The translations under genes were made by a program, and so were the position numbers. A stretch of DNA of 55,022 bases from Thermoplasmatota archaeon (GTDB lineage Archaea > Thermoplasmatota > Thermoplasmata > Thermoplasmatales > Thermoplasmataceae), in the NCBI GenBank assembly GCA_023379345.1, contig JAMCUV010000104.1, positions 1 to 55,022 on the forward strand, read 5' to 3'. This document shows positions 1,387-44,586 of this stretch, in pieces. The notes beneath the pieces are model-generated. The model saw only the letters and a list, made by a program, of their open reading frames with translations. It was not told where the DNA came from and did no database searches. Within the stretch, counting starts at the first letter, position 1. Every line of letters starts with the position of its first letter.

Positions 1387-2397
1387 ATGATTGTGGATGA
1401 GGTTGTGTATGAGCATATCGCAAAGAGGGCTCAAAGCTACGGCATAGGCAATACGCCGCTCAAGAAAGTCTTCACTTCCGATACCGGCTCATCGGTTTAT
1501 GCCAAACTCGAATATTTCAACAGATTCCGATCAATCAAGGACAGAGCAGCCTTCTTCATGATAAGCACTGCCATTGAGACTGGGCAACTCAGCAGGGATA
1601 AGAAAATCATCGAGGGCAGTTCTGGAAATACGGGCATTGCCGTCGCAGGGATAGCCGGCTTGATGTGTTTCAGCTCAGAGATACTGGTCTCGGCTGCCAC
1701 GAGTGAAGAGACAAAGAAAATGATCAGGAGGACAGGAGCAAACCTCATAGAGGTAGAGGATGAAGCAAGCAGGGAAGGCAGGATCAATATCGACGGCGCT
1801 CTTCAGGTCCTGAGAAAGAAGATGTCTGACTTTCCTGATGACTATGTCAATCTGAACCAGTATGCCAACATCGCGAACACAATGGGGCATTACTACACCA
1901 CCGGCCCGGAGATCGTGTCATCTCTTAAGCATAATCCATCACATATAATAGTCTGCATTGGTACAGGAGGTACCATAACCGGGCTGGCAAAATACTTCAA
2001 GGACAAGAGTCCTTCCACCAGGATCATCGCAGGTGAACCTGCAAAAGACCATCACATACAGGGGCTGAAGAATCTATCGGTTTCTGAGACGCCAGAGATA
2101 CTCAGGAAGGGCATGGGGAACATAGATGCATGGGAACATGTCTCTGACAGCGAAGCAAGATCAGGGGTACTGGAAGTCCTGGAGAACGAGAAACTGTTCA
2201 TTGGTCTTTCATCGGGCGCCAACTATATGCTGGCCAGGAAGCTGGCCTCAAGCACCAGAGATGCATGCATTGTCACGGTCTTCCCGGACAGCGCTGAGAA
2301 ATATTACAGCACCTATACCAGGTCTGGGCTCATGACTCAGGAGCAGTTCAGGGAGAATGAGAAGCTAATCCCTCACCCGTGGGCTATTCCCCCCTGA
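1387..2397 (+). CDS. Cysteine synthase family PLP-dependent enzyme (CysK/CysM/O-phosphoserine sulfhydrylase-like)
   Basis: 336 aa. Contains SIKDRAAFFMI (PLP lysine motif) and GSSGNTGIAVA (phosphate-binding loop). Confidence 0.8.
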   Translation: MIVDEVVYEHIAKRAQSYGIGNTPLKKVFTSDTGSSVYAKLEYFNRFRSIKDRAAFFMISTAIETGQLSRDKKIIEGSSGNTGIAVAGIAGLMCFSSEILVSAATSEETKKMIRRTGANLIEVEDEASREGRINIDGALQVLRKKMSDFPDDYVNLNQYANIANTMGHYYTTGPEIVSSLKHNPSHIIVCIGTGGTITGLAKYFKDKSPSTRIIAGEPAKDHHIQGLKNLSVSETPEILRKGMGNIDAWEHVSDSEARSGVLEVLENEKLFIGLSSGANYMLARKLASSTRDACIVTVFPDSAEKYYSTYTRSGLMTQEQFRENEKLIPHPWAIPP

Positions 2398-10780: not shown

Positions 10781-11104
10781 ATGCTTAAAGAAATGCCTAT
10801 TAGAGCGGGAATACATAAAAAAATGATTAAATATGGAATAGTGCTCACAGTCTTTATGAGCCATGACCGAAAGGTTGTGATTTACCTCCTTGTGATGTCG
10901 ATCATTGTGGGTGTCGTCTTTTACTTCATCTTCGAATACCAGTTCACAGTGTTCTTTGCGAGCCAAAATGCAGCGCAGAGCACGCCCGGCATGGCGGCAT
11001 TCCTTGCCACGGGCATGGCTGCCGGGGCGTTTACCATTTCAATGCTCATTTATCCATTGAAGAGTAAAATCGACAAGAGCTACGACTGGGAGGATTTCAA
11101 ATGA
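10781..11104 (+). CDS. Small membrane protein, first gene of the oxidase operon
   Basis: 107-aa ORF with 2-3 hydrophobic helices. Its stop overlaps the start of oxidase subunit II (ATGA). No family recognised and the start is uncertain. Confidence 0.45.
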   Translation: MLKEMPIRAGIHKKMIKYGIVLTVFMSHDRKVVIYLLVMSIIVGVVFYFIFEYQFTVFFASQNAAQSTPGMAAFLATGMAAGAFTISMLIYPLKSKIDKSYDWEDFK

Positions 11105-11547
11105 TGTCTAAGGGGAAAATCGAGACGGTTTTCATGGCAATGGTCATAGTTGTCCTGGCTGTCTTTGCAGTTGCAAATTACGCAGCCATAATGCAGACCA
11201 AAGGATCTATTGCGCAGGATGCTTCGCCTGTCACCAACGCCTCGGGAGAGGTTATCCATGTCATTGGCCACCAGTGGGCGTGGACGTTTATCTATCCAAA
11301 TGGCACTCAGGCCGAGAACAACCTTGTTGTCACTGTAAATACAAGAATTACCCTTATTGTCAATTCAAGCGATGTCATTCATGATCTCTACATCCCCCAG
11401 ATGGATATACAGAGTTACGCAGTACCTGGACAGAACAATACCGTTTCATTTACTCCCACCAGCACTGGTCAGTTCTTTTTTGAGTGTGTGGAATACTGCG
11501 GTGAGTTTCACTACGAAATGAGAGGATACCTGACGGTGATCAGCTAA
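11101..11547 (+). CDS. Haem-copper oxidase subunit II (CuA domain)
   Basis: One N-terminal TM helix, HQWAWTF, and the CuA ligand pattern CVEYCGEFHYEM. Confidence 0.9.
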   Translation: MMSKGKIETVFMAMVIVVLAVFAVANYAAIMQTKGSIAQDASPVTNASGEVIHVIGHQWAWTFIYPNGTQAENNLVVTVNTRITLIVNSSDVIHDLYIPQMDIQSYAVPGQNNTVSFTPTSTGQFFFECVEYCGEFHYEMRGYLTVIS

Positions 11548-13226
11548 TGGCAGATTATTCAACCCTAATGCTGACATCCGGTGTAATCCTGTCCCTTATA
11601 GGTATTGTCGCGTTTGCAATCTACTATATTATAGCCGACAGGAAGGCTAAACTTGCTGAAATGGCCAGAGAACGAGGCTATCAAAGCACGGCACAGTTCT
11701 ACAGGGATTTTGTTGCTAACAAGAAAAGAAGAATATCATGGAATATCATGGTAGACAATGACGCAAGAAGCCTTGGACTAAGGTACCTTCTCACCTCCAT
11801 TTTGTTCTTTTTCATAGCAGGAACGTTCGGACTGGGGATGAGACTCAGTCTAACATACAACGTTCCACAGACATTTTTTACATTCCTTACTCCAGACGCC
11901 TACAACATCCTTCTAACAGAACATGCAACACTCATGATTTATATGTGGGCCGTAGGAGCTGCTGTGGGTCTTGGTTACTACCTGTTGCCTTCCCATCTTA
12001 ATCTCACAAGAGACGGCCGGGGCGGTTATTCTTCCATTGCCTACTGGATCTGGCTCTTCGGTGCAATAATATTCCTGTTGTCCAGATCATCCTTCAGATG
12101 GTATCTGTACCCTCCGCTTTCACTTCAGCTCAGTCAGAATGGGGGCGGACTCTTTGCCTGGATGGGCATTCTTGGAATGATCTTCATATTTATCGGCCTT
12201 TTGATCGTCGCCATAGTCATTGTCCAGATCATCCTGTTCGACAGAAGCAAGGATATCAAGCTTGGCAAGATGTCTCTGTTTTCATGGAGCATTCTTGACA
12301 CCGCCCTGATGATGATAGTCTCAATCCCGCCCATTCTTGTGGGTTTAACGATGCTGATGTATGATTATTATGCTCCCATATTCTTCACGGCTTCAGCCCA
12401 CAACGTCCTGCTTTTTTTGATCCTGTTCTGGTGGTGGGGCCATCCTATTGTATACATTGCTGTCATTCCTTATTTTGGAATCATCTACGAGATTATTCCA
12501 AGATTCACAGGCACCAGCATTTACAGTTACAGATCCGGTGTACTTGGTCTGGGATTGCTCACCATTCTAAGTATGACCGTATTCGGCCATCACCTTCTTA
12601 ACTCAGGTCTTGGAGTGGCCTGGGATATCCTGTTTGAAACCACCTCTTTCATCGTCGTGATACCGTCGGCAATCACCGTTTTCAACTGGATTGCAACGTT
12701 CTGGCAGGCCAACAAGATCAGGCTTACCACTCCCATGCTCTTTGTCCTGAACGGAATTATAGATTTCATAATAGGTGGTATAACCGGTGTAATGCAGGTT
12801 TATCAGCCCGTAAACCAGCTGGTTCATGGGACTTACTGGGTTACTGCCCACTTTCACTTCATATTTATGGGAATAACTGTGGGCATAACGATGGCTGCGG
12901 TTTACCTGCTCTTCCCACTGATCACAGGGGGAAGGATGTATAATGTACTCTTGGCCAGGGTACATTTTTACCTGACCGCTATTGGGTCCATGCTCATGTC
13001 AACGGCCTGGGCCGTGGGAGGGTTTCTGGGGATGCCTAGGGCAGTTGCTGGGTACTTCAGCTGGTTCCAGGCATATCAGGATGCTTCAATCATAGGCGGA
13101 GTCATAATTGGAATAGGGCAACTGGTATTCCTTGCCAACTTTGCAATGAGCTGGCTCAAAGAGCCGACAACATCTGACGAGTCAATACTGGAGAAACCGT
13201 TTGCGGTCCCTGGAGTTGATGCCTGA
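11547..13226 (+). CDS. Haem-copper oxidase subunit I
   Basis: 559 aa with at least 12 TM helices. Contains WWWGHPIVYI (CuB His plus cross-link Tyr) and HFHFIFMG (haem ligands). HPIVY in place of HPEVY resembles B-family oxidases. Confidence 0.92.
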   Translation: MADYSTLMLTSGVILSLIGIVAFAIYYIIADRKAKLAEMARERGYQSTAQFYRDFVANKKRRISWNIMVDNDARSLGLRYLLTSILFFFIAGTFGLGMRLSLTYNVPQTFFTFLTPDAYNILLTEHATLMIYMWAVGAAVGLGYYLLPSHLNLTRDGRGGYSSIAYWIWLFGAIIFLLSRSSFRWYLYPPLSLQLSQNGGGLFAWMGILGMIFIFIGLLIVAIVIVQIILFDRSKDIKLGKMSLFSWSILDTALMMIVSIPPILVGLTMLMYDYYAPIFFTASAHNVLLFLILFWWWGHPIVYIAVIPYFGIIYEIIPRFTGTSIYSYRSGVLGLGLLTILSMTVFGHHLLNSGLGVAWDILFETTSFIVVIPSAITVFNWIATFWQANKIRLTTPMLFVLNGIIDFIIGGITGVMQVYQPVNQLVHGTYWVTAHFHFIFMGITVGITMAAVYLLFPLITGGRMYNVLLARVHFYLTAIGSMLMSTAWAVGGFLGMPRAVAGYFSWFQAYQDASIIGGVIIGIGQLVFLANFAMSWLKEPTTSDESILEKPFAVPGVDA

Positions 13227-14802
13227 TATGAATGATAAGGCCGCAGGTAAACTTGTTGGAGTAATTTTTGCAGTCATTATCCTGCTTGCAATGGGCGCCA
13301 CGCTATTCACCACAGTGAATTATCCTGTATCTCAGACTTTCTCCTTACCCTCTGCTCCCGCGCATCCCCCACATGAAGTCAACATCACCTTATATGCCGA
13401 TGCCAGTGGATGGGACTACCTTCACGGACCAAGCAACCCAACCATTACTATCCTCAATGGCACGCTTGTTCACTTTACTGTTATAGAGGAGGACAATCAA
13501 CCACATACTCTTACCATCAACCCTGGTTCTTCAGAATCCAGTTATTCCGATACCCTGCTTTCCACCTCACAGATCACAACCACTCCCGGTCACATATCAT
13601 ACGTAACCGCTTATTTCGACACAGTGGGAGTCTTCACTTACTGGTGCACCATACATCCAACCACAATGGTTGGCCTTATAAATGTGGTGTCCTCACTTCC
13701 GTCTAATGTTTATAAATTCCCAACTCCCCCTTCAAGCGCCACCGTTACCGCACATGTATCGCTGACCGCAACAAATTCTGGATTCACCAGCAGCAATGGT
13801 ACAAATCCAAACCTCTTCTTTGGGAACGATAGTCTCGTGAATTTCACGATCATCCAGAATGGAACCAGTATGCACGACTTTATTGTTGCCCCAGGTGACA
13901 ACGTTTCCAGTTTCAACTCCACGGTAATTAATGCCACGGAAATTGGCACAACGAACGGGAGATCAGTATCGGTTAACCTGTACTTTAACACAACTGAAGA
14001 ATTCACCTACTGGGATTCATATTATCCCTCGAAGACAGTTGGTCACATCTTCATCACCAGGAGCACCAGTACAGCCTCGATTGCGGTGACCGATCTTGGC
14101 CTTGTGACAGGCGGCACCCGAAACTGGACTTTACCAGTGGCCATTTCAACCGCCGTTGTCCTGCATTTTGAGGATACATCCAAACTGAACTACTCTGTCA
14201 TGGTTTCCTCGGACCGTTACTCTGCAGTATCGAACGGTACTTTGGTCTCAACCACAAATGCATCAACCAGCGTTGAAATTGCATCATACAACTTCACAAA
14301 AGTTACCCTTATCGACAACAAGGTTACCAGTGGCTCCACTGGGAACATCCTGTATTATGAGCACCTCCGGAACATTACGCTTTATGCAAACCACTTGGGC
14401 TGGAATTATTCTGTGGGATCTGTGAATCCTGTTTTCAACCTGACTCTGGGGACGATGGTCAATTTCACACTGATCAATGGGGACGGACTTAATCATACGC
14501 TGGCAATATCATATGGCAACCTTCCATATGCAGGAACCACTGAGAATGTAACTTCAGTAAACAGCACTGTGAAAACCTCCTTCGGCTACTTCCTGTTCCA
14601 AATGTATGGAACTTATACCTACTTCGATACATATCACCCATCATCAGCTGTATCCAGTATCAATGTTACAAACGAAACCAGTGCTTCTGCATCTGTTGCA
14701 ATACCTTTTACTCATATGTATGCATATCCATCGGAAAACAGTGGAACCCAGTATACATACGTCCTCTCAGGTACGGTCAATGAGCCTAAGAGATATAATT
14801 AG
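13219..14802 (+). CDS. Membrane-anchored multi-domain cupredoxin (sulfocyanin-like blue copper protein)
   Basis: N-terminal TM anchor. The first domain carries a complete type-1 Cu ligand set (QPH..., YWCTIHPTTM). It is followed by repeats whose equivalent positions are degenerate (YWDSYYPSKTV, YFDTYHPSSAV). I count 24 N-x-S/T sequons. The ATG at 13219 overlaps the end of subunit I. Confidence 0.8.
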   Translation: MPDMNDKAAGKLVGVIFAVIILLAMGATLFTTVNYPVSQTFSLPSAPAHPPHEVNITLYADASGWDYLHGPSNPTITILNGTLVHFTVIEEDNQPHTLTINPGSSESSYSDTLLSTSQITTTPGHISYVTAYFDTVGVFTYWCTIHPTTMVGLINVVSSLPSNVYKFPTPPSSATVTAHVSLTATNSGFTSSNGTNPNLFFGNDSLVNFTIIQNGTSMHDFIVAPGDNVSSFNSTVINATEIGTTNGRSVSVNLYFNTTEEFTYWDSYYPSKTVGHIFITRSTSTASIAVTDLGLVTGGTRNWTLPVAISTAVVLHFEDTSKLNYSVMVSSDRYSAVSNGTLVSTTNASTSVEIASYNFTKVTLIDNKVTSGSTGNILYYEHLRNITLYANHLGWNYSVGSVNPVFNLTLGTMVNFTLINGDGLNHTLAISYGNLPYAGTTENVTSVNSTVKTSFGYFLFQMYGTYTYFDTYHPSSAVSSINVTNETSASASVAIPFTHMYAYPSENSGTQYTYVLSGTVNEPKRYN

Positions 14803-15640
14803 GATCACCAAGGCCGAGATCACTTTTCTCATACTGGTAGTCGCAGTAACAGGCTTTCTTGCTGCTCCGGGTGCCTCGACGAGACTCATAATACTTCTGC
14901 CCCTGCTTGTGGCCGGAGGGCTGTCATCCATTTCTGCATCCCTTTTCAATAACATATACGACAGGGATATAGATGTCATAATGGCAAGGACCTCCTACAG
15001 AAGCAACATAGTCAACCAGGAGAATTACAGGAGGTTCATCGCATATTCATCGATTATTCTTATTTTTGCCAGCGCAGTTGCATATTTCCTGATAAATTTA
15101 CTCACGCTTCTCTTCATCCTGGGAGGCTTCGTCAGCTATGTCCTTCTTTATACAATGGTTCTGAAGAGAAGGACGTCGCTAAATATTGTCATAGGAGGCA
15201 TAGCCGGTAGCTTCCCTGCCCTCGCAGGATGGTCCGCGGTCACAGGTTCGGTTTCCTTGACGGCCATTTATATAGCACTCCTTGTCTTTGTTTGGACTCC
15301 CACTCATTTCTGGAGCCTTGCCATGGGGACAAAGAAGGACTACACATCGGCAGGGGTACCCATGCTCCCGTCGCTTGTCCCGGAAAACAGGGCTTTTGGA
15401 TACATCGTTGCTAACTCAGGCATAATGGTCATCTACAGTCTCCTGCCATTCTTTCTTCCTGAACTTGCGGTGGGGACGGCATATTTTTTCGTGGCAATAA
15501 TCCTCGATGCTATACTCATTTACTTTATGGTGGCCATCTATGTTAAGAACCTGGCAGCATCTTCCTTCAAGCAAGCATTTCACTTCTCAAACCTCTACCT
15601 CCTGGTGCTTTTGGTTTCCATCTGGTGGATAATTGCATGA
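14780..15640 (+). CDS. ctaB: Protohaem IX farnesyltransferase (haem O synthase)
   Basis: UbiA-family polytopic protein with NNIYDRDIDVIMARTSYR and a second Asp-rich region. Start set at the ATG at 14780, because the ORF extension upstream overlaps the cupredoxin gene. Confidence 0.88.
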   Translation: MSLRDIIRITKAEITFLILVVAVTGFLAAPGASTRLIILLPLLVAGGLSSISASLFNNIYDRDIDVIMARTSYRSNIVNQENYRRFIAYSSIILIFASAVAYFLINLLTLLFILGGFVSYVLLYTMVLKRRTSLNIVIGGIAGSFPALAGWSAVTGSVSLTAIYIALLVFVWTPTHFWSLAMGTKKDYTSAGVPMLPSLVPENRAFGYIVANSGIMVIYSLLPFFLPELAVGTAYFFVAIILDAILIYFMVAIYVKNLAASSFKQAFHFSNLYLLVLLVSIWWIIA

Positions 15641-17064
15641 AAGTTGCTTCCAGAGATCTATTGGTGCTGATCCTTACTGATCTTTCAATAGTTCTCTACC
15701 TTTACTTTCAGTCCATCTCGGGTTATCTCATAACGGAACCGCAGGCACTTCCCACGTTATATGCTCTGCTGGCCATACTGTTCATCCTCTCTGTTCCAGC
15801 TTCGGTGGCATCCCGACGTCTTCATACGTACGCCAGGTACCTGCACGCGTCGTTTGTCTTCTCGCTCATTGTGCTTCTTCTCCTGAATGAGCGTCTCATC
15901 GCGACCCCATTTATCATCATGCCGTTGCTTGTTTCGCTGATCACGTACGCAGACAGGTACCCGGGAAGGCGCAATTTTATTGTTCTGGCACTGTTCGTGG
16001 GGATAGAATTCCTGTTTGTTTTCATATCCGGCATCATCAGATACGAACCGGTCAGTGTGAATAACATCATCCTGGGGTCCATTTATGATGATGAGAACCC
16101 TGCAGGAGTCCCAGCCCTTTTCGCCTACAGCGACTATGTATCTTCAGGGCACCTTGTCATGACGCTGAGCCCCGTTTACCTCCTGCTTACGGGTTTTCTG
16201 GCGTCAGTCATTACCCAGAATTTCTCGATGATCTATAATCTGGTCTCAGGAACCGGGAGATATCTCAGACCAGACCTGGTGGGTTCAGGTCTCGTGCTGT
16301 TTTCATGCCAGTGCGAGGGCATTCTGGCTGCACTGCCATCGCTGGCATCCCTTGTAGTCAACCTCATATTCATTCCATTGATAGCAGAAAGCGCCATTCT
16401 GGTGGTGATGACAAACCTGCTCCTTCAGACCTATTTCCTGAGGAACCGAGGCTTTCCACCCTTCGAGAGACATAGGGAGCAGACCTCCATGAAGGCTCCA
16501 ATATATGCCATTCTGCTACTTGCTCCCATTATCCTGCTGATTTATGGCAGCTTGCTTGGGTGGCAGTACACCATATACTTCTTCTTTGGCATGAACATCG
16601 TCATGTACCTCGATGGCATGCTTTTCTTCATAATCCTTGCGAAGGTGGCAAATCTCAACCTCAAACCGGGTACATTAATGGCTTCCGGAATCTTCACCCT
16701 GTGCTCTACTGCAATGTTTGTATGGTTCATTCCCCCGCTTGTTGCCAGCGTGCTGCAGAACTTCGTTCTCTATGGAGTGATGATCCTTGTTACATTTGCA
16801 GCCGGCCTTGGAACGGGTTTCGTTTACTCCACCATCAGTACAAAATCCAGGGGGATTTACTGGGAGACCATTGCCATGATGATCAGCCTGCTTGCCCTTG
16901 TCATGCTCTACTATACGGCAGAGTTTGGGTATTCTCCATGGGCCTCATTCGGAGCATCTGAGGTATTTTTCTTTTCAATCGTCCTTGTGGCTTTATCCTA
17001 CCCTCTGCTGTGGATCACGACTAACGCTGCCCTGAGCAGGGTAGCCGCGGCAAGGGCTGCATGA
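15637..17064 (+). CDS. Polytopic membrane protein of unknown function (oxidase operon)
   Basis: About 475 aa with roughly 12 hydrophobic segments and a CQCEG motif. Both its start and its stop overlap neighbouring genes (ATGA junctions). No family recognised. Confidence 0.6.
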   Translation: MKVASRDLLVLILTDLSIVLYLYFQSISGYLITEPQALPTLYALLAILFILSVPASVASRRLHTYARYLHASFVFSLIVLLLLNERLIATPFIIMPLLVSLITYADRYPGRRNFIVLALFVGIEFLFVFISGIIRYEPVSVNNIILGSIYDDENPAGVPALFAYSDYVSSGHLVMTLSPVYLLLTGFLASVITQNFSMIYNLVSGTGRYLRPDLVGSGLVLFSCQCEGILAALPSLASLVVNLIFIPLIAESAILVVMTNLLLQTYFLRNRGFPPFERHREQTSMKAPIYAILLLAPIILLIYGSLLGWQYTIYFFFGMNIVMYLDGMLFFIILAKVANLNLKPGTLMASGIFTLCSTAMFVWFIPPLVASVLQNFVLYGVMILVTFAAGLGTGFVYSTISTKSRGIYWETIAMMISLLALVMLYYTAEFGYSPWASFGASEVFFFSIVLVALSYPLLWITTNAALSRVAAARAA

Positions 17065-17693
17065 CTATGGCTGAAAACAGATTCCTTCTCTACTTCATCC
17101 TGGTCGAGGCCTTCTTATTCGGCACGTTTTTCGGTACCCTGGCGTTCGAACGCAGTTCAGGTTTGGCAGGCCTCTTCTACGGATTTTATGTATATATCAC
17201 GCCCGTTCTGCTTCTGGGTCTGTGCCTTACAGATCCGGCTCTACGTGACAAACTCAGGTCACTAATAGTTTCCAGCGATCTCATCATTCTGATCGTCGTC
17301 ATCATTGGCTGGGGTATCGCCTGGCTGTATCTCGGCCTGAGTCCCTGGGGGCTATTTTTTCCATACGCCTTCATCGACGAGCTCAATTTCCGCTTCGTAT
17401 TCCAGAACAAGATCTCGGCTTATGCTGGCAGAGGCAGGGCAGTGATTTTGCAGGCCATTGCCTTTACAGCGCTGTACTCATCCTATGTTATTTTCGAAAC
17501 AGCAGGGTATCCCGGATTATTTCTTCCGCTGTTCTTCCTCGATATGTTTGGCATGGGAATGCTCTATGGTGCCTTATACTATCTCAGGGGAAACATATAC
17601 TCTGACATAGCCATACACATTTCGCTGTATGCAATGATCCCACTGCTTCCAGCATATCTCGGTTTTATTCCATATTCTCTCCTGCCCACGTGA
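17061..17693 (+). CDS. CPBP (CAAX/Abi) family intramembrane protease-like protein
   Basis: 210 aa and polytopic. DELNFRFVF matches the EExxxR-type motif 1, and a later HISLYAM resembles the HxxxN/D motif. Confidence 0.55.
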   Translation: MTMAENRFLLYFILVEAFLFGTFFGTLAFERSSGLAGLFYGFYVYITPVLLLGLCLTDPALRDKLRSLIVSSDLIILIVVIIGWGIAWLYLGLSPWGLFFPYAFIDELNFRFVFQNKISAYAGRGRAVILQAIAFTALYSSYVIFETAGYPGLFLPLFFLDMFGMGMLYGALYYLRGNIYSDIAIHISLYAMIPLLPAYLGFIPYSLLPT

Positions 17694-17695
17694 TT

Positions 17696-18835
17696 TCAGG
17701 CATGGAACTGTTGACCTACGGACCTCACCGCCGCCAGGACTTCCTTCCGGAGCAGCATGCTGTCTGGAGCTGTTCCTCCCCTGATTATATCCCTGACGTC
17801 CGTGCCGCTTATCCTGATTCTAGATGAGGGCCCGTGGGAGCACTCAGTTATAGAGGTGACCTTACCGCAGTCCTTACAGTAAGAAGCCTCCCCTATCTTC
17901 ATGATCTCAATGCCCAGGTCCTCGAAGGATTCACAGTTCCGCTGGGCATCAAGCGGTCCATAATAGTTGCCGACTCCAGCATGATCCCTGCCCACAATGA
18001 AGCGGGAAGCGCCAAAGTTCTTTCTCATAATCGCGTGCTGCAGTGCCTCCCTGGGTCCGGCATACCGCATTTCATAGGTGATGGGAGATATGAGCACCCT
18101 TCCTTCCGGATAATGGTGGGCCTGCATTGCGTCATATGCTGCGATTATGGCGTTATCACCGAAATCTCCACTTTTCTTTCTTCCGGTCACCGGATTTATG
18201 AATAAGCCGTCGCTGGATTCAAGAGCCTTCAGGTGGATGTATTCATGGCCCAGATGTGGAATGTTCCTCGTCTGGAATGCAGTCACCTGCTTCCAGCCCT
18301 TACGCCTGAAATATTCTCTTGTGTCGCCAGGATAAAGAATTCTGCTCTGAAACGGGAATTCAAATGGAAACACATACCGCATGGGCCCGGCAAGGATGTT
18401 TCCTCCACAGGACATGAACGCGGAAACACCAGGGTGCTTCTCATCTGTGGTTCCGAAGATGTGTCTGGACGCCTCCTTAAGATCAATCTGAAATTTTTCC
18501 GAAATAACGATGACAGCCACAGGTCCGTTGCAGTCATGGATCAGGATCTCTTCCCCTTCACGCCCCCCCTGATAGTCAGGCTCACTGACTTGAAGCAGCA
18601 CGGGGATTGGCCAGATATTTCCGTCGGGGAGCCGCTGTTCCTTGAGAACTGAATCCGTCTCTTCACTGGTGTTGAAGCCGGTCAGCGGACTGTAAACTCC
18701 GGTGGAAATCAGTCTCGCAGCGATCCTGGCCCCTTCCGGCACCATGATCCTTTGGTCTGCAGAGAACTCAAGAGCCTTCTCTGCATCTGCCACCCCGACT
18801 GAAACCAACTTTCCTCCATGGGGTTCTGGTATCAT
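17696..18835 (-). CDS. sat: Sulfate adenylyltransferase (ATP sulfurylase)
   Basis: 379 aa with QTRNIPHLGHEYI and GRDHAGVG motifs and a C-terminal Cys-rich zinc-like region. Confidence 0.92.
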   Translation of the reverse strand: MIPEPHGGKLVSVGVADAEKALEFSADQRIMVPEGARIAARLISTGVYSPLTGFNTSEETDSVLKEQRLPDGNIWPIPVLLQVSEPDYQGGREGEEILIHDCNGPVAVIVISEKFQIDLKEASRHIFGTTDEKHPGVSAFMSCGGNILAGPMRYVFPFEFPFQSRILYPGDTREYFRRKGWKQVTAFQTRNIPHLGHEYIHLKALESSDGLFINPVTGRKKSGDFGDNAIIAAYDAMQAHHYPEGRVLISPITYEMRYAGPREALQHAIMRKNFGASRFIVGRDHAGVGNYYGPLDAQRNCESFEDLGIEIMKIGEASYCKDCGKVTSITECSHGPSSRIRISGTDVRDIIRGGTAPDSMLLRKEVLAAVRSVGQQFHA

Positions 18836-19587
18836 TTCCGGTCAACCTTCGTTATGAACCCAGTATGAACATCTCCAGACTGTGTGTGGATTCCGCACTC
18901 CTTCTTTCCGCCTTCCCACCACCACCTCCCTGCCCTCAGGTCTTCGCCTGCTGCAACGGCCCTGGTACAGGGAGCGCAACCTATGCTGGGAAAACCCCTA
19001 TCATGCAGGGAGTTGTAAGGAACGTTATTTTGCCTGATATAGTCCCACAACTGCTGTGTGCTCCAGTCAGAAAGAGGATTTACCTTCAAAAGATGAGGCC
19101 TTACGGGATCGGAGGCGATCTTCACGACACTCGACCGTTCCTCAGACTGCTCCTTTCTTACCCCTGTGATCCAGGCGCTGTGGCTTTCCAGTTCTTCCTC
19201 CAGCGGAATGACTTTTCGGACCCTGCAGCACAATTTCCTGAGTTCCACAGACTTGTAGAATAGATTTGGTCCGTGAACAGTTACCATTTCGCTCAACTGC
19301 CCGGTGGCGGGGGTCAGAGTTCTGATCTCTATGTCATAAGTCTCCCTTACCGACTGCATGAGAGCATACGTTTCCTCGTGAAGTCTGCCGGTGTCCAGGG
19401 TGACGATCTCCGGCAATTCGCTTATCTCACCGCGCATGCGCACAATCATGTGCAGAATGACCATGTCTTCTGCTCCAAAGCTGCATGCAAACATCGACTT
19501 GTTTCCAAACGTTTCAGCAGTCCATCTTATGAGGGTCTCTGCATCCATAGATTCCTCCGTTAATCCTGATGCTTTCCACAATTCCAT
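18832..19587 (-). CDS. cysH: Adenylyl-/phosphoadenylyl-sulfate reductase (CysH family, Fe-S type)
   Basis: PP-loop-like fold with the C-terminal KKECGIH motif. The CC (LCCRVRK) plus CAPC cysteines are typical of [4Fe-4S] APS reductases. Overlaps sat by 4 nt. Confidence 0.88.
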   Translation of the reverse strand: MELWKASGLTEESMDAETLIRWTAETFGNKSMFACSFGAEDMVILHMIVRMRGEISELPEIVTLDTGRLHEETYALMQSVRETYDIEIRTLTPATGQLSEMVTVHGPNLFYKSVELRKLCCRVRKVIPLEEELESHSAWITGVRKEQSEERSSVVKIASDPVRPHLLKVNPLSDWSTQQLWDYIRQNNVPYNSLHDRGFPSIGCAPCTRAVAAGEDLRAGRWWWEGGKKECGIHTQSGDVHTGFITKVDRK

Positions 19588-19657
19588 TGCACCTTATCTG
19601 CCTGAGGAAAATAAGGCATATTATGTGCTACAACTCTTCATATAATCTGCATAATTT

Positions 19658-19699
19658 GCGTATATATGATATAGATACAGACATTATATTCATATACGC
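19658..19699. promoter_or_regulatory. Inverted repeat GCGTATAT-N26-ATATACGC in the cysH/comA divergent promoter
   Basis: Arms at 19658-19665 and 19692-19699 are exact reverse complements. They sit in a 129-bp AT-rich spacer with several TATA-like boxes. Confidence 0.35.
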
Positions 19700-19716
19700 T
19701 GTACCGCTCTCTCACA

Positions 19717-20694
19717 ATGGCTAAATTTCTTCAGAGCGTGATTGATGCTTCCAGGCCCAAACCACATGTCAGTGGCGTGACAATGGTTCTTGATCGGGTT
19801 TCCGGCGGCCTCGGTCCTGTGGCAAGATCGCTCTCCGAGTTCATTGATGTCGTCAAGATCGGCTGGGGCATCCCATTTCTGATTGACGCAGACGAGCTGG
19901 AGGGATGGGTCAGGGGCTGGACCTCCCTGGGGGTAAGTGTATCCAATGGAGGGACCCTGCTTGAATACTGCACGACCAAGAGGAAGCAGGAGACGTGCAT
20001 ACGTGAACTATCCAGGACAGGCTTCGGGACCCTTGAGATTAGCGAAGGGCTCATTGAGATTCCGAGAACAGAGAAAAGAGGCATGGTGGAACTTGCCAGA
20101 TCCCTGGGAATGCGTGTGCACATAGAAGTAGGAAAGAAAGACTCCAGAAATCAACTGACCCTGAAAGCGACACTTGACAGGCTCCACGTGGCCATTGATC
20201 TTGATCCGGACATCGCGATTGTGGAGGGACGGGAATCGGGGAGAAGCGTCGCAATTTATGATGACGCAGGGGGAATAAAGTGGGACTGGGTCGATGCCAT
20301 TGTATCGGAATTCGGGCTTGGAAAGATCATGTTCGAAGCGCCACAGGAAATGCAGCAGACCAACCTAATCCTGAGACTTGGAAGTGAGGTGAATTTGGGT
20401 AACGTGGGTGTCGGAAGCGTTGCTGCCTTGGAGACACAGCGTCAGAGCCTCCGGGGGGATACATTCGGGATCCACTCAGTACTTCCTGACATAAATGGAG
20501 GACCTTCTTCCCGTTTTGTCTATTACATCATAAGCTCCCATGGCACCGTTGATCAGGAGAGAGTCATGAAACTGACCGGCCTCAACCGGAGGACAACACA
20601 GAATTCGCTTTCGTCCCTCATCAGGCAGGGTCTCATCCGGGAGACAAGAGACATGACTGACATGAGGAAGAAGCTGTATTCACTAAATTCATAG
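19717..20694 (+). CDS. comA: Phosphosulfolactate synthase (ComA family) fused to a C-terminal winged-helix domain
   Basis: Residues 1 to about 250 align by eye with methanogen ComA (VTMVLD, VKIGWG, IVEGRESG, IMFEAPQ, LRGDTFG). The last 70 aa or so (VDQERVMKLTGLNRRTTQNSLSSLIRQGLIRE...KKLYSL) look like a MarR/TrmB-type wHTH. Confidence 0.85.
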   Translation: MAKFLQSVIDASRPKPHVSGVTMVLDRVSGGLGPVARSLSEFIDVVKIGWGIPFLIDADELEGWVRGWTSLGVSVSNGGTLLEYCTTKRKQETCIRELSRTGFGTLEISEGLIEIPRTEKRGMVELARSLGMRVHIEVGKKDSRNQLTLKATLDRLHVAIDLDPDIAIVEGRESGRSVAIYDDAGGIKWDWVDAIVSEFGLGKIMFEAPQEMQQTNLILRLGSEVNLGNVGVGSVAALETQRQSLRGDTFGIHSVLPDINGGPSSRFVYYIISSHGTVDQERVMKLTGLNRRTTQNSLSSLIRQGLIRETRDMTDMRKKLYSLNS

Positions 20695-20732: not shown

Positions 20733-21593
20733 TCACCTGTTGCTAAGAAATACGCCAAATGAAATTACGGCAAAACCGGATGCCGTGAGCAGGCTTATTC
20801 TCTCGCCAAGTAAGATGCTGCTGAACACAACTGATATCGCTGGAATTATGAAGAAATAAGGGGAAATTTTAGAGATGGAATAATTTCTGAAAAGGATCAG
20901 GTATATGAGGTAAGGAACATAGGTCCCAACAAGGCCAAGATAAAGTCCCACACCAATGAATTCCGGGGTCAGGCCGGAGAACGGGGATCCTCCCACAACG
21001 TATGTCAGCACTAGGATTACGGGAAGTGAGTATGCGTACTGCAGGACGTTAATCGTCCTGACATCTATGTGTGCGGTCTTTTTCTTGAAAACCGCGGTGC
21101 CAGCGGCCCAGCTCAACGCACTGACAATGAGAAGCACAACTCCAAGATAACCATTGAGATAGACATTAGCTGAAGCAACCATTATTACGCCAATGAATCC
21201 TATGATCATGCCGGCAATGGTGCCTTTGCCTGGCTTCTCTCTAATGAATATAACAGAAAGTAGCACGTTGAAGAGAGGGTATGTGTATACCAGAATGGAG
21301 CTCAGGCTGGCACTGACCATGCTTTCGCCAATGAACCATAATCCCATGAAGCCCACTATATTGAGCATGGAAACAAGCAGCACCACGACATTATCCCCAT
21401 GTCTCACTGGGAATTCTTTCAGCTTGAAGACGAGAAAGGGGAATGAGGATACCAGTGCGAAAAGGATCCTGTAAAAAAGGACCACCAATGGCGGCTCCAT
21501 GGTAAATGCGATCTTTAGAATGGGGTAGTTCAGGGCATATGAACATGCCATAAAGAGGAAGAGGAGAGTTGCTTCCGAATCCTTCAAGTCCAT
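20733..21593 (-). CDS. EamA/DMT superfamily transporter
   Basis: 286 aa with ten hydrophobic helices arranged as two EamA-like halves. Confidence 0.8.
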   Translation of the reverse strand: MDLKDSEATLLFLFMACSYALNYPILKIAFTMEPPLVVLFYRILFALVSSFPFLVFKLKEFPVRHGDNVVVLLVSMLNIVGFMGLWFIGESMVSASLSSILVYTYPLFNVLLSVIFIREKPGKGTIAGMIIGFIGVIMVASANVYLNGYLGVVLLIVSALSWAAGTAVFKKKTAHIDVRTINVLQYAYSLPVILVLTYVVGGSPFSGLTPEFIGVGLYLGLVGTYVPYLIYLILFRNYSISKISPYFFIIPAISVVFSSILLGERISLLTASGFAVISFGVFLSNR

Positions 21594-34013: not shown

Positions 34014-34304
34014 ATGGAGCGGAGGGAGACGCCGGAAAGGCAGATCGAGGAGTCAAAAACTTCAACCAGGCCCAGGCTTACAAGCATGATCCCACTTCCA
34101 AAGATCACGGTAAGGAACATATACAGGTTTTTCGGGCTGTTTCTGGTGGTACTTGGTCTATCATTCTACGTTGGATGGTCCATAATTTATGGGACGTGGA
34201 CAGACATAGGCCTGTATTCCTTTGTTGCGCCCGTAGTTGTATTTGGCCTCTTGACTCTTCTCCTGATGCACGAGAAGGACATTGAAGAAGAACGCTCTTC
34301 ATGA
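34014..34304 (+). CDS. Small two-TM membrane protein
   Basis: A charged N-terminus is followed by two hydrophobic helices (FFGLFLVVLGLSFYVGW, LYSFVAPVVVFGLLTLLLM). A TTAATTATAG TATA-like box lies about 27 nt upstream of the ATG at 34014. The start is uncertain. Confidence 0.5.
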   Translation: MERRETPERQIEESKTSTRPRLTSMIPLPKITVRNIYRFFGLFLVVLGLSFYVGWSIIYGTWTDIGLYSFVAPVVVFGLLTLLLMHEKDIEEERSS

Positions 34305-35687
34305 ATGACCGATCAGTTCAGCTTCCCTTGTGGTACAGATAATCCTCAATCTTCGTAGCATGCCGTCTCGGTAGAAATAACACTCGGAGTATGGATCTCT
34401 TTTCCCTCCTGGCAGGAGGTCTGTCCGCATCTCGCCAAATCTGCTGGAGGTTAGGAAGCTTATTCCGTTCCTCTGCCTGTCTTTGTTCCTGAAAATGAAG
34501 TTCATACTGCTGTTTGAAAGCATGGATTTTCCCTCTGACGTTCCCGTGAAATCTTCCAGGTTCTGACTTATGCTTATCACTGAAGCATTGTAGTGACGTG
34601 AACTCCTGTAGATTGCGTCCAGGTAGCTGGTTGTCCGGGCGGATTTGAAGTATGTATGTGCCTCGTCTATGAGAATGATCTTCCTCGCTCCATTACCTGA
34701 CCTGAGAAACCTGTTTGTGATATCAATGGTTGCCTCAAGCAGGTCCGACCTTCGCTCCATTTCGTCAGGAGACTGCCTGATTATGTTCAATCTGCTGAAC
34801 GAAGCCTTGTCTATGATCTTCCCGTTTGCGGAAATCAGGTCTTCCTCTCCTATGACTGTGGAGGATTGAGAAAACAGTCCCGATCCATATTCTCCCATCG
34901 GGTCTATGACCAGAACGCTTTCTGCCATACCTGTCAGAAGCGCTCGCATCAGCAGTAGTTTTGAGAAGAATGATTTTCCGCTGCCTGTCTCTCCAACCAC
35001 AACCGAGTTGTAGGAATTCCCTCCAAACGGGTCGGCGAATACCGGCTTCTCGCTTTCTGCATCTATCCCCAGCAGTAGACCGCTCCTGGGTGGATTACTC
35101 TCATAGTACAGGGGGATTATGGAGGATACGGATCTGCTGTCCATGATGTATCTTGAACCATGGCTACCAAGGGGGTTGACGAGCTTTCCGACCCTGCGCC
35201 TTGAAATCACAGGTTCGTGTGTCAGGTCAAAACCAAGCAGGGACATTGCACGGGCGAACCTCCGGAGGTTTCCATTGAGATCTGCGGGGTGAGATCCTGA
35301 AACAACAAATGTCATCGACACCTGAAAGAGTGCGTCGCCATCCCGTGTGACCCTCATGCTGAGAAGCTCGAGTGAACGCAGCTGGATTTCCAGCTTATTT
35401 TTCAGTGGTCTGTTGCTTTCCGAGGTCAGGCGCTGATCCGAAATCCTGTCCGCGCCAATTCTCTTGAGTATGGATCTAGCCTTCACGTCAGGATATCTTT
35501 TCATCACCACCCTAGTGTATACTGGAAAACTTAGCCCGTCGATGAGTTCATAGATCATCTTGATACGGTTTTCTGCCACGTTATTCAGCGAGAGAAATGC
35601 ATAATGCTTCTTTCCCGATAGATAGTACCGCCTGACGTGAAAGACAGTGGAACGTTCCCTTCCGTGATCCCCGTGCAAATGATCCAT
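34299..35687 (-). CDS. VirB4/TrbE/CedB-like T4SS ATPase
   Basis: Walker A VVVGETGSGKSF, Walker B KIILIDEAHTYF, a downstream RHYNASVISISQNLEDF motif and a C-terminal NFIFRN motif, plus an N-terminal VirB4-like domain. Start set at the ATG at 35687, 4 nt after the upstream stop. Confidence 0.8.
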   Translation of the reverse strand: MDHLHGDHGRERSTVFHVRRYYLSGKKHYAFLSLNNVAENRIKMIYELIDGLSFPVYTRVVMKRYPDVKARSILKRIGADRISDQRLTSESNRPLKNKLEIQLRSLELLSMRVTRDGDALFQVSMTFVVSGSHPADLNGNLRRFARAMSLLGFDLTHEPVISRRRVGKLVNPLGSHGSRYIMDSRSVSSIIPLYYESNPPRSGLLLGIDAESEKPVFADPFGGNSYNSVVVGETGSGKSFFSKLLLMRALLTGMAESVLVIDPMGEYGSGLFSQSSTVIGEEDLISANGKIIDKASFSRLNIIRQSPDEMERRSDLLEATIDITNRFLRSGNGARKIILIDEAHTYFKSARTTSYLDAIYRSSRHYNASVISISQNLEDFTGTSEGKSMLSNSSMNFIFRNKDRQRNGISFLTSSRFGEMRTDLLPGGKRDPYSECYFYRDGMLRRLRIICTTREAELIGHS

Positions 35688-35691
35688 TGTT

Positions 35692-36402
35692 TCACTCCAG
35701 GAAACTGAGGCACTCCAGAGTCTCCTCTTCTCCCGGATCCCTGCAGGCAAAGCCATAGCTCTCCAGGTAGCGTCTGACACCTGCGGTCTCGTTTTCCAGG
35801 GTGGTCTGATTCACCTCATGTCCGGTAAGTATCACGTATGCCGACTGATAAAAACTGCCTCTGCATGCGTGTGCTACAAGATTCTCATAATCCTCCAGCT
35901 GATTGATATTCCCACCACCCGAAAACGCAGGTAGAGGAACTCTGCTTGAGTCCACCGGGATGCTAAGAAAGATCGCATCTGTACCCATGGAATTGAACGT
36001 TTTCTCCATCAGTGTAATGGCTGAGGCCCTCTCTGAGTCTCCAAGCCTCAAAATGGATCTCTGAGCAATGCCTGTGATGGAAAGCAATCTTCCATGGAAG
36101 GCGATTATGCAGTTCCTTGATGTGATTCTTGAATAATGTGTGTGAATCTCGGCTCTCTTTGGGGCGGTGTGATATACGACCGCCCTAAGCACTGCTGAAT
36201 ACAGCGGGGTGTCATCCCTGGAGATCAGGACCAGCGGAAAGACCATCACTGTAAAGAGAATTGCTGCAAAATAGCTAATTTCCATCAGCACCGAGGAGAT
36301 GCACACCGTTAGGACGACCATCACGACCCTCTCATAGGACATCCCAAGTATCCTGCTCCCATAGTCAAGAACGTTTGATGGAAACGGTGTATCTTCTGTC
36401 AC
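35692..36402 (-). CDS. VirB3-like two-TM segment plus soluble VirB4-N-like domain
   Basis: 236 aa. Two N-terminal hydrophobic helices (VVMVVLTVCISSVLMEISYFAAILFTVMVFPLVLI) are followed by a soluble domain. Its position immediately upstream of the ATPase matches T4SS gene order. Confidence 0.55.
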   Translation of the reverse strand: MTEDTPFPSNVLDYGSRILGMSYERVVMVVLTVCISSVLMEISYFAAILFTVMVFPLVLISRDDTPLYSAVLRAVVYHTAPKRAEIHTHYSRITSRNCIIAFHGRLLSITGIAQRSILRLGDSERASAITLMEKTFNSMGTDAIFLSIPVDSSRVPLPAFSGGGNINQLEDYENLVAHACRGSFYQSAYVILTGHEVNQTTLENETAGVRRYLESYGFACRDPGEEETLECLSFLE

Positions 36403-36405
36403 GGG

Positions 36406-37368
36406 TTAATCCCCACTCCTGTACGCAAGTTCACTTGCGTACACCTTGCTCCAGTCCAGCGGTGTTTCAGGAGACGTATATGGTCCGCTGAGTCCCTTCA
36501 TTTCATGCGACAATCGGAAACCTGTCAGGCTTGAGAGTGCTGATGTTGCATCCCCGGCCTTGGTCACCGCACTGAAGGCTCCGGAGAAACCTGAAACTCT
36601 TGATGCAACGTTTTCAGCTGAGATTCCCTCAAACATTGAACCCAAGATGGAGGAGTAAAAAATCCTGCTATTGCTCATGAGAATTAACGGAAGAGCGGAA
36701 CTGAGGAACAGAAGAGCCAGCTGCAGGGGAAAATCCCCCTGGAAAAAGCTCATGGCCTCAAGGACTACCAGGACGAAGAATGGGAGGATGGAAAGTTCAG
36801 CAAACATTTTCCACATCGCAACCGCATATTTTTCTGTCTTCTGGAAGGCAAACATGATGGAGAACAGAGGCAGCACCAGTATCATGAAGATCAGGATTGC
36901 CTGGCGGATCTCCAGGGTTCCCAGGAGTGCTATGATAGAGAAGAACAGTGCCGAAAGAAAGAGAAACGTTATGATCGATGAGGCGCTGCCTGCCGGACCC
37001 TGTACCTGGGATCCATAGTCGAGAATGCCCGTAAGGTTGTACCAGTCTGTTCCACTGCCGTTCCATACCACTGAAAATGCGGCAAATGAAGCGGAAAGAA
37101 TCACCCTGCAGATCTGGATCGAAAATAGGGATACTGTGAGCGCAAGCAGGTACCTGATCATCAGGTTCGCCGGGGAAGTGGGACTACCCAGCGAGTTGGA
37201 TACAAGCATGTATATGGAAAGGATGATTATGGCAAGCCCTGCAGCATATACGTATATGCTTGAAGTCAGGAATCCATAGAACTGTAAGATGCCTGTGTTT
37301 CCTTCTATGAGCATCTCATAGGCGTACTTGGGAGCAAGCCCGTAAGTAACCACCACGTTCCAGAGCAA
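36406..37368 (-). CDS. VirB6/TrbL/CedA-like polytopic membrane protein
   Basis: 320 aa from a TTG start, with about 6 TM helices and a soluble tail of about 85 aa. The 81 nt upstream are open and in frame with the preceding gene. Confidence 0.55.
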   Translation of the reverse strand: MLWNVVVTYGLAPKYAYEMLIEGNTGILQFYGFLTSSIYVYAAGLAIIILSIYMLVSNSLGSPTSPANLMIRYLLALTVSLFSIQICRVILSASFAAFSVVWNGSGTDWYNLTGILDYGSQVQGPAGSASSIITFLFLSALFFSIIALLGTLEIRQAILIFMILVLPLFSIMFAFQKTEKYAVAMWKMFAELSILPFFVLVVLEAMSFFQGDFPLQLALLFLSSALPLILMSNSRIFYSSILGSMFEGISAENVASRVSGFSGAFSAVTKAGDATSALSSLTGFRLSHEMKGLSGPYTSPETPLDWSKVYASELAYRSGD

Positions 37369-37449
37369 GGAAGCGGAAGCAATGTAAGCGCCATCGAAGA
37401 AAGAAATAATGTCGCCAATGATGGAGGCGACCTCCGATGCCAGCAGGAT

Positions 37450-37731
37450 TCACGACCCCGTTGCCAGGTAAAGGAATATGGTATAGAGCGTCCCGGACAT
37501 GGCGAGAACATAAATCACTGTGCCTATGAAAGCATTCTTTAGCCTCAGTTTCGCGGAATAGCGCTTGTCCTCGTCGTCGCTGAAGAAATTCAGTGCTATG
37601 GGGATCCAGAGTATGGCTATGAGAATGGCCGATACAGATGCGACAACCTCGTACACCCGATCCATAATCTGGGCGATCTGGGTAGAATTTGCCGAGGTTG
37701 TCATTATTGCAATTAGTGTACTAAATGACAT
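37450..37731 (-). CDS. VirB2/TrbC/CedA1-like two-helix pilin-type protein
   Basis: 93 aa, made of a leader-like N-terminus, a hydrophobic helix, the charged loop SDDEDKRYSAKLRLKN and a second hydrophobic helix. Confidence 0.55.
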   Translation of the reverse strand: MSFSTLIAIMTTSANSTQIAQIMDRVYEVVASVSAILIAILWIPIALNFFSDDEDKRYSAKLRLKNAFIGTVIYVLAMSGTLYTIFLYLATGS

Positions 37732-42722: not shown

Positions 42723-42825
42723 CCCGGCTTAGCTCAGTTGGTAGAGCGGCGGACTGTAGAGGAATATCCACTAATGGAATACCGCCGTAATCCGCAGGTC
42801 TCTGGTTCAAATCCGGAAGCCGGGA
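42723..42825 (+). tRNA. tRNA-Tyr (anticodon GTA) with an intron of about 30 nt after position 37
   Basis: CCCGGCT acceptor stem (C1:G72, the archaeal Tyr identity pair), D arm TAGCTCAGTTGGTAGAGC, anticodon stem GCGGA/TCCGC with loop CTGTAG-intron-A, T arm TCTGGTTCAAATCCGGA and discriminator A. Confidence 0.88.
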
Positions 42826-43600: not shown

Positions 43601-43652
43601 AGCTATGGGTAGTCTATATTGATTACTTGCTGTGCATCCCGTGAAGAAAATG

Positions 43653-44012
43653 TTACTCTGAATACTCTGTTTCCATGCCGGTTCTGAGCCATTTCTGGAT
43701 CCCGCCGTCAATGGAAAACACGTTGGTTATCCCATTATCCATCAGGTACTGGCAGGCATAATAGCTCCGGTGTCCACTGTTGCAGATCACTGCAATTTCT
43801 TTGTCACGGTGCTTCCTCAATTCATCCAGACGGTCAGGTATATCCATCATGGGAATGAGTACCGATCCCTTTACATGGCCGGTATTGCTCTCAAATTCCC
43901 ACGGCTCGCGCACATCGAGGAACAGAACATTCTCCTCCCCTTTCTCGTTCATCAGGTCCGCAACTTCGAGAGGAGTTAGTATCCTAACGCTTCCATCATT
44001 CTTGGTGCCCAT
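43653..44012 (-). CDS. Single-domain rhodanese sulfurtransferase
   Basis: 119 aa with the active-site loop CNSGHRS. Confidence 0.85.
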   Translation of the reverse strand: MGTKNDGSVRILTPLEVADLMNEKGEENVLFLDVREPWEFESNTGHVKGSVLIPMMDIPDRLDELRKHRDKEIAVICNSGHRSYYACQYLMDNGITNVFSIDGGIQKWLRTGMETEYSE

Positions 44013-44097: not shown

Positions 44098-44586
44098 ATG
44101 TATAATATCTCCGTTATAGGCGGTGGGGACATCGACGAAAGTACCTGCAAAATTGCTTACAGGGTTGGGGAGTTGCTGGCAAAGAATGGCGTCACGATTG
44201 TCTGTGGAGGACTTACTGGCGTAATGGAATGCGTATCGCGTGGCGCCTCTGATGCAGGCGGGATGGCCATTGGAATTCTGCCAGGGAGCAGGGTGGAGGA
44301 AGGCAACAGATACCTTTCAGCGAGACTTCCAACGGGCATAGGATATGCGAGAGATTTTCTGGTCGTTAGAATGGGAGAGGCAGTTATAGCCATAGACGGC
44401 GCCTCAGGCACGCATACTGAGGCATACTTTGCCCTTTCCGAGAGAAAGTCCCTGATATGCATGGGTGACCTGTCGGTCAGGAGGGAAAAAGAAACTGACG
44501 GGAAGCTTTTCAGAGTCACAACCCCTGAGGAGGCCGTAGACATTGCACTCAAAGAGGCAAAGATTTACAGGGAATCATCCGGATGA
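44098..44586 (+). CDS. TIGR00725/LOG-like Rossmann-fold protein
   Basis: ISVIGGGD...VGELLAKNGVTIVCGGLTGVMECVSRGA...GGMAIGILPG pattern. Start set at an internal Met. Confidence 0.65.
   Translation: MYNISVIGGGDIDESTCKIAYRVGELLAKNGVTIVCGGLTGVMECVSRGASDAGGMAIGILPGSRVEEGNRYLSARLPTGIGYARDFLVVRMGEAVIAIDGASGTHTEAYFALSERKSLICMGDLSVRREKETDGKLFRVTTPEEAVDIALKEAKIYRESSG

Follow-up and report, generated by a model that had tools for sequence, protein, structure and literature searches.

A phosphosulfolactate synthase homologue with a C-terminal winged helix, encoded divergently from sulfite-forming genes in Thermoplasmata

The locus

In a 55,022-nucleotide stretch of archaeal DNA (contig JAMCUV010000104.1 of assembly GCA_023379345.1, forward strand; the whole stretch is called the window below), two genes of sulfate activation and reduction, sat and cysH, are divergently paired with a gene for a homologue of the phosphosulfolactate synthase ComA (EC 4.4.1.19; Table 1). 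The identities and positions given to these genes by the original prediction, which was made from the sequence alone, were all borne out by family matches. That prediction treated the third gene as a plain comA and overlooked its 3' end: the encoded protein has 325 amino acids (aa) instead of ~250, and the additional part is a winged helix-turn-helix (wHTH) domain. The winged helix and the divergent layout together speak for a regulatory role of the locus (cysH-sat and comA-wHTH) no less than for a pathway.

Sat contains the PUA_2 (PF14306) and ATP-sulfurylase (PF01747) domains and passes the cutoff of NF003166 (402.9 bits, cutoff 387). CysH matches PF01507 (PAPS_reduct) and TIGR02055, the family "APS reductase, thioredoxin dependent" (APS, adenosine 5'-phosphosulfate; 248.7 bits versus a cutoff of 235.3), and its translation shows the cluster ligands (CC...CxxC) together with the catalytic motif ECGIH, in agreement with the Fe-S type assigned to it earlier. 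As an Fe-S APS reductase it requires no APS kinase, and homology indicates that Sat and CysH would together turn sulfate into sulfite without one. Gene callers prefer an alternative cysH start at 19548, which yields 238 aa; the CAT/CAC at the start used here, 19587, is kept in relatives in the footprint alignment described below.

The minus-strand sequence (CGG AAA TGA / ATG ATA CCA at the junction) confirms that cysH and sat overlap by 4 nt, ATGA. In a metatranscriptome from a similar mine-drainage site, one contig spans this junction (18764-18974), which is consistent with co-transcription of cysH and sat. Two contigs from the same study fall on cysH and none on comA, a coverage too thin to judge comA expression.

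Table 1. Features of the window and, in the last row, related loci in other lineages
Feature	Position	Strand	Remark
sat, ATP sulfurylase (sulfate to APS), 379 aa	17696-18835	-	second gene of the cysH-sat operon
cysH, thioredoxin-dependent APS reductase, [4Fe-4S] type (APS to sulfite), 251 aa	18832-19587	-	
Divergent intergenic control region, 129 bp	19588-19716		footprint over 10 relatives; repeats and inverted repeats
Conserved block TTAAGnnATTTTATAG	19608-19628	-	TATAAAAT on the minus strand in relatives; columns 66-82 of their alignment
TTCATATA	19637-19644	+	upstream copy of the direct repeat; candidate operator
ATTCATATA	19688-19696	+	invariant in 10 relatives; third repeat copy; centred ~25 nt before the comA ATG
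comA-wHTH, phosphosulfolactate synthase domain plus winged helix-turn-helix, 325 aa	19717-20694	+	
ComA (beta/alpha)8-barrel domain	19753-20469	+	residues ~13-251
MarR/TrmB-type winged helix	20503-20685	+	residues ~263-323; H1, H2, recognition helix H3, beta-hairpin wing
EamA-family transporter (PF00892)	20733-21593	-	convergent with comA-wHTH
CysK/CysM-family pyridoxal phosphate enzyme	1387-2397	+	TIGR01136, 214 bits, below equivalog cutoffs
Respiration cluster	11100-17693	+	directly upstream of sat
tRNA, 103 nt	42723-42825	+	Rfam match; missed by ARAGORN, presumably owing to an intron
Rhodanese, 119 aa	~43650-44010		separate; adjoins the ThiI-rhodanese gene
ThiI fused to a rhodanese domain	44565-46055	-	
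Nitrososphaerota / Nitrososphaerales loci with the fusion	L018:7282-10975; L102:4474-6912; L031-L033		

The ComA domain

The barrel of the fusion protein matches PF02679 over 240 of the 243 model positions (residues 13-248, E 1e-59, 202.5 bits with a gathering score of 25.2) and the Methanocaldococcus jannaschii enzyme 1QWG at about 35% identity (E 1.5e-43). It missed the cutoff of TIGR03849, the equivalog family of archaeal ComA proteins of coenzyme M biosynthesis (199.4 bits versus 280). By its sequence this ComA belongs to a distinct subfamily and is not a methanogen orthologue.

In an AlphaFold2 model of the fusion protein (predicted local distance difference test score, pLDDT, of 89.6), the barrel occupies residues 20-250 and is followed by a linker, the helices H1, H2 and H3 and a beta-hairpin wing. 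Foldseek matched the model to 1qwg (E 9e-23, TM-score 0.87) and 1u83 (TM-score 0.85), both scores being normalised to the target. Residues E107, K141 and R172 align with E103, K137 and R170 of the M. jannaschii enzyme and are invariant in an alignment of 33 diverse homologues that are 43-81% identical overall. Judging from the intact catalytic residues and the fold, the domain is predicted to bind phosphoenolpyruvate (PEP) and sulfite and most likely still yields (2R)-phosphosulfolactate.

The C-terminal winged helix

The modeled C-terminal domain (pLDDT 84-96) has the canonical winged-helix topology, with helices at residues 263-275, 280-287 and 291-303 and strands at 307-311 and 319-323. When the C-terminal domains of 24 family members were scanned alone, MarR_2 was matched by 21 (E<0.01), and the Pfam families MarR_2, TrmB and MarR each found 14-21 of the 24. 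Searched as a profile, the domain matches PcaV, SlyA and AdcR with the wing motif D-x-x-D-x-R aligned, and nine of its positions are invariant across the 33 homologues (P263, Q280, R291, Q295, L301, D312, D315, R317 and Y321), a level of conservation that the barrel shares. NCBIfam gave a weak MsvR-like match for the fusion protein, and in the annotation of the Joint Genome Institute a C-terminal fragment is named a MarR regulator.

The fusion is not peculiar to this contig. All 120 homologues listed are 301-353 aa long, enough for the extra domain; precomputed MarR_2, TrmB or HTH_24 matches are present in roughly a third of them, and domain matches or alignment confirm the winged helix in many homologues. 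Clustered at 50%, the ComA family comprised 294 clusters at E<=1e-10, and among the best 150 of these ~20 were full-length fusions, down to 28% identity, with the closest unfused relative at 44% identity. The named carriers, all uncultured, are Ca. Sysuiplasma, Thermoplasmatota and Nitrososphaerota, the last a phylum that includes ammonia oxidisers. Paper searches for a ComA-wHTH fusion, or for ComA in Thermoplasmata or Thaumarchaeota, gave nothing relevant.

Conservation of the divergent pair

We surveyed the gene order in 93 non-redundant loci that encode the fusion, placing Sat, CysH and EamA by tblastn and clustering the neighbouring open reading frames (ORFs), which in loci of 61-74% GC were chosen by a filter on codon-position GC. 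Loci whose ComA is at least 48% identical to that of the window were classed as Thermoplasmata-type; their GC content is 41-49%, with a few at 68-70%. In all 23 such loci that have upstream sequence, cysH lies divergent and immediately upstream of comA-wHTH by tblastn. Pfam tables added three more loci with a divergent cysH (L099, L100 and L101), from Methanomassiliicoccales, Thermoplasmatales and Sysuiplasma-like metagenome-assembled genomes (MAGs), so that the pair covers about 17 lineages. In at least 18 related loci the next gene after cysH is sat, and five lineages (L021, L022, L025/L092, L099 and L101) keep cysH without sat.

This breadth backs the proposal, made from the window, that ComA and the production of sulfite are functionally tied. 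An incidental adjacency of unrelated genes would agree with the variable flanks, EamA among them; it is contradicted by the survey, in which the pair is retained at ComA identities as low as 48% and at GC contents from 41% to 70% while the surroundings change, and we consider it highly improbable. Since the genes beyond it vary, the conserved core is the divergent pair cysH(-sat)<>comA-wHTH. The EamA transporter had been pointed out as a neighbour of the module; it is indeed present (Table 1), and as a conserved neighbour it failed, recurring only in the closest relative (L007), so that its link to the module is weak.

In the public annotation of a complete 2.2-Mb relative (CP009479.1; L017:9117-10000), the stretch from sat to ComA is left without a gene. 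This stretch holds an intact 258-aa cysH by tblastn and ORF call, which appears to have been missed.

Partners of the fusion in other lineages

Outside the Thermoplasmata-type loci the fusion has other partners. In a high-GC clade from soil and peat metagenomes (61-74% GC, ComA 39-46% identical; L034-L098, e.g. L057:8684-12941, L045, L059 and L063), comA-wHTH stands co-directionally between a gene of the PF01663 phosphodiesterase family and one for a short-chain dehydrogenase/reductase (SDR). In at least eight of these loci sat, often with APS kinase, is inserted directly upstream of comA-wHTH; cysH is almost never found. The complete string reads PF01663 protein, (APS kinase, Sat), ComA-wHTH and SDR, followed by genes for a ROK kinase, a GH15 enzyme and an alpha-amylase.

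In Nitrososphaerales its divergent neighbours encode an SsuABC-type ABC importer, the binding protein of which scores above the SsuA-family cutoff. In two MAGs of Nitrososphaerota the divergent neighbour is a gene of the YeiH family, whose members are named putative sulfate exporters; at L018 a UDP-sulfoquinovose synthase scoring above its equivalog cutoff is encoded next to them. The common theme of the partners is the supply of sulfite or sulfur, and the layout is mostly divergent, as is typical of a regulator and its target. Such neighbours, a sulfonate importer in one case and a YeiH-type transporter in the other, are more readily reconciled with a regulator of sulfur or sulfite than with an operon of sulfonate synthesis.

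Pathway partners and sulfite reductase

ComB (PF04029), ComC (PF02615) and ComDE, or xcb genes in their place, were found neither in the window nor in nine Pfam-annotated neighbourhoods, and genes for cysteate or sulfolipid formation were missing from the window and from every Thermoplasmata-type neighbourhood. Sulfite reductase domains (NIR_SIR or Fsr) were likewise lacking in the window, by Pfam tables and family scans, and in the Pfam-annotated neighbourhoods. A regular expression for the siroheme motif CX5C...CX3C matched nothing within the window or among the ORFs of the loci, a crude negative. The earlier observation that the window has no sulfite reductase thus withstood these searches, but, coming from only 55 kb of a genome, it carries little weight.

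These findings bear on the proposal that the locus is a dedicated sulfonate-biosynthesis module, in which Sat and CysH would feed ComA, enzymes encoded elsewhere would turn phosphosulfolactate into sulfolactate, cysteate or taurine, a sulfolipid head group or a cofactor, and the wHTH would be at most an autoregulator. The part of it that stands is the conserved linkage of sulfite formation and ComA: cysH(-sat) and ComA stay together, sulfite reductase is never in the cluster, and the catalytic residues are intact. The PF01663 protein and the SDR of the high-GC clade could also be non-orthologous stand-ins for ComB and ComC. The precedent of Bacillus subtilis yitBA-yisZ plus yitCD, to which the locus had been likened, stands as well, with sat-like and cysH-like genes beside a ComA homologue (PMC517825), and sulfonate osmolytes such as taurine occur in biofilms of acid mine drainage without a known prokaryotic source (PMC3604775). 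What did not stand is the rest of the pathway: ComB, ComC and ComDE are absent within the scope given above, and with no downstream enzyme near, the module is left with one enzyme. Moreover, a synthesis operon does not square with the neighbouring sulfonate importer and YeiH-type genes of other lineages, the strong conservation of the wHTH is left unexplained, and the supposed exporter, EamA, is not a conserved neighbour. On balance we think this proposal rather unlikely, without dismissing it.

The CysK/CysM-family enzyme encoded at 1387-2397 also bears a weaker match to the cysteate synthase CapA. Its substrate could be sulfide, or possibly sulfite, and the gene suggests that the cell also uses or needs sulfide. 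This would suit a second alternative, namely that sat-cysH act in cysteine synthesis together with a sulfite reductase from another part of the genome, and that the ComA domain was recruited as a module for binding sulfite or PEP whose turnover has no physiological importance, as with ThiN in ThiR. Several observations agree with such a pure sensor: the divergent arrangement of regulator and target, the missed TIGR03849 cutoff, and the variety of sulfur-supply partners (cysH, sat/cysC, ssuABC, yeiH), which recalls a CysB/Cbl-like regulon. Against it, every residue that aligns to the active site of the M. jannaschii enzyme is unchanged throughout the clade, whereas recruited sensor domains usually lose such residues. 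We regard a sensor for which catalysis no longer matters as unlikely.

The spacer between cysH and comA-wHTH

A footprint alignment of the 129-bp spacer with 10 relatives revealed two TATA-like blocks that flank conserved TTCAnATA repeats. The block TTAAGnnATTTTATAG is the putative TATA box of the cysH promoter. On the other side, ATTCATATA is the putative TATA box of a leaderless comA-wHTH mRNA, as its distance from the ATG is the archaeal TATA position for such transcripts. This element is unique in the window, and allowing one mismatch we saw no enrichment elsewhere in the window, so that no regulon could be derived from it.

The direct repeat TTCATATA, conserved in relatives, is present in copies at 19637 and 19689, which are 52 nt apart, with a degenerate middle copy at ~19659-19670; of its four occurrences in the 55 kb, two fall within the spacer. 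Distant lineages show repeats of different sequence at a spacing of about 21 nt, as judged by eye. An operator in the spacer is, on this sequence evidence, plausible but not established. An 8-mer shared by the spacers of 12 lineages was tried as a common operator and rejected: the best candidate, AT-rich, occurred in 11 of the 12, a count that was reached by 2 of 100 shuffles.

A possible enzyme and regulator in one protein

Sulfite is a toxic intermediate, the mine waters inhabited by the host are rich in sulfate and, to our knowledge, the regulation of archaeal sulfur assimilation is poorly understood. We tentatively favor the reading that the fusion is a bifunctional phosphosulfolactate synthase and transcription regulator which couples the level of sulfite to the expression of the operon that produces it; we hold this to be a real possibility, a little short of evenly balanced. 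It is favored because the DNA-binding domain is conserved, the layout is divergent, and the partners, which change from lineage to lineage, always belong to the supply of sulfur oxyanions. These partners cover reduction, activation, sulfonate import and a YeiH-type putative exporter. The spacer, with its repeats set between two TATA-like blocks, and the lack of enzymes for coenzyme M or sulfolactate in the surveyed neighbourhoods also speak for this reading.

Under this reading, Sat and CysH would make sulfite from sulfate, and the ComA domain would take up PEP and sulfite and form (2R)-phosphosulfolactate, so that free sulfite is removed as a sulfonate. The winged helix would bind the shared promoter region, as its domain type, its conservation and the gene arrangement suggest, and transcription of cysH-sat and of its own gene would be set by the sulfite, PEP or product held in the enzyme domain. 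The protein would thus be a "trigger enzyme" that feeds the level of sulfite back onto the genes producing it; in other lineages it might control sulfonate import or sulfur-oxyanion export. The phosphosulfolactate formed could be a sink, an osmolyte precursor or a signal alone.

Several points weigh against a bifunctional enzyme and regulator. The winged helix of the window protein itself stays below the gathering cutoffs of 25-27 bits for HTH_36, MarR_2 and TrmB (22.5, 20.4 and 19.3 bits), and the best match of the domain profile in the PDB is MerB2, a reminder that fusions of an enzyme with a wHTH are not always regulators. In the model, no MarR dimerisation helices flank the wHTH, a bare domain of ~65 aa past the linker; only the ComA barrel, a trimer in M. 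jannaschii, could supply oligomerisation, which would be unusual for a wHTH regulator. Among the spacers of different lineages no common 8-mer exceeded the shuffles, despite the highly conserved recognition helix, and the PF01663-ComA-SDR arrangement of the high-GC clade looks like a metabolic operon. Finally, the catalytic roles of the conserved residues are presumed, as we take Glu103, Lys137 and Arg170 of M. jannaschii to be the catalytic residues proposed in the paper on 1QWG.

A bolder form of the bifunctional reading would make ComA-wHTH an unrecognised, widespread archaeal sulfite-sensing factor, with catalysis (PEP + sulfite to phosphosulfolactate) as the sensing step, perhaps acting as a trimer on the three direct repeats, and a master regulator of cysH-sat, ssuABC and yeiH in Thermoplasmatota and Nitrososphaerota. 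We consider this possible, though doubtful. If it were true, the non-methanogenic carriers would make a C3 sulfonate, a possible feed for osmolytes (sulfolactate, cysteate, taurine) in sulfate-rich acid mine waters.

The fusion beside sulfite-producing genes is a concrete, testable candidate for the sensing and limiting of sulfite in Thermoplasmatota and Nitrososphaerota and, if the bifunctional reading is true, would extend the trigger enzymes by a new type. Should its enzyme domain be active, phosphosulfolactate would be made by many archaea that are not methanogens, and the question becomes which sulfonates result; a "ComA" match in a metagenome would then be an unsafe sign of coenzyme M or methane metabolism.

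Host and other features of the window

The same contig is present in two Thermoplasmata MAGs (GCA_023487875.1 and GCA_027322455.1) and in many metagenomes of mine tailings and mine drainage. The host is an uncultured, aerobic Thermoplasmata archaeon of mine tailings and acid mine drainage, as indicated by the cluster with a heme-copper oxidase and heme O synthase directly upstream of sat and by a tRNA with a presumed intron, which is consistent with an archaeal host. No methanogenesis genes were found in the 55-kb window, and the respiratory genes just upstream agree with the earlier remark that nothing else here suggests methanogenesis.

The respiration cluster encodes COX2, COX1, a 533-aa protein, heme O synthase (UbiA family), a 479-aa membrane protein and an Rce1-like protease. 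The 533-aa protein has zero Pfam matches, repeated ...Y(W/F)..(H/Y)P... segments and one C..H....M motif resembling a copper site; the 479-aa membrane protein is without any family match. On the minus strand at ~34300-37700, matches to DUF87/TraG-like P-loop ATPases, a weak match to a type IV secretion system pilin and several ORFs without a family may belong to a conjugation-like or pilus-like element. The ThiI-rhodanese fusion and the separate rhodanese are sulfur-relay genes without an evident link to the sat-cysH-comA unit.

Comparison with known systems

The C-terminal domain shares its winged-helix core and the D-x-x-D-x-R wing motif with PcaV, SlyA and AdcR of the MarR/TrmB family. The fusion lacks the helices by which MarR proteins dimerise, at the N-terminal and the C-terminal side of that core.

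The ComA of methanogens (M. jannaschii MJ0255, PDB 1QWG) is of the same Pfam family and TIM-barrel fold as the fusion, with about 35% identity and the aligned active-site residues kept. It has ~250 aa and no DNA-binding domain, and works with ComB, ComC and ComDE toward coenzyme M. In contrast, the fusion is found in an aerobic non-methanogen with no com partners near, and has ~75 extra residues that form a winged helix.

The yitCD and yitBA-yisZ genes of B. subtilis resemble the locus in that dedicated sat-like and cysH-like genes lie beside a ComA homologue in a non-methanogen (PMC517825). The B. subtilis cluster differs by including ComB (yitC) and an APS kinase (yisZ) and by its control through sporulation, and YitD (PDB 1U83), a more distant relative of the window ComA (E 1e-20, 26% identity), has no wHTH.

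A precedent for an archaeal regulator built from an enzyme and a wHTH is RbkR, a bifunctional riboflavin kinase and regulator of major archaeal lineages, which likewise joins a metabolic enzyme to a winged helix and is encoded beside genes of its pathway (PMC5397151). Its enzyme and ligand are other than those of the fusion. The domain order is different too, with the DNA-binding domain of RbkR at the N-terminus. Further trigger enzymes, in whose company the ComA-wHTH fusion would stand, are BirA, NadR, PutA and ThiR.

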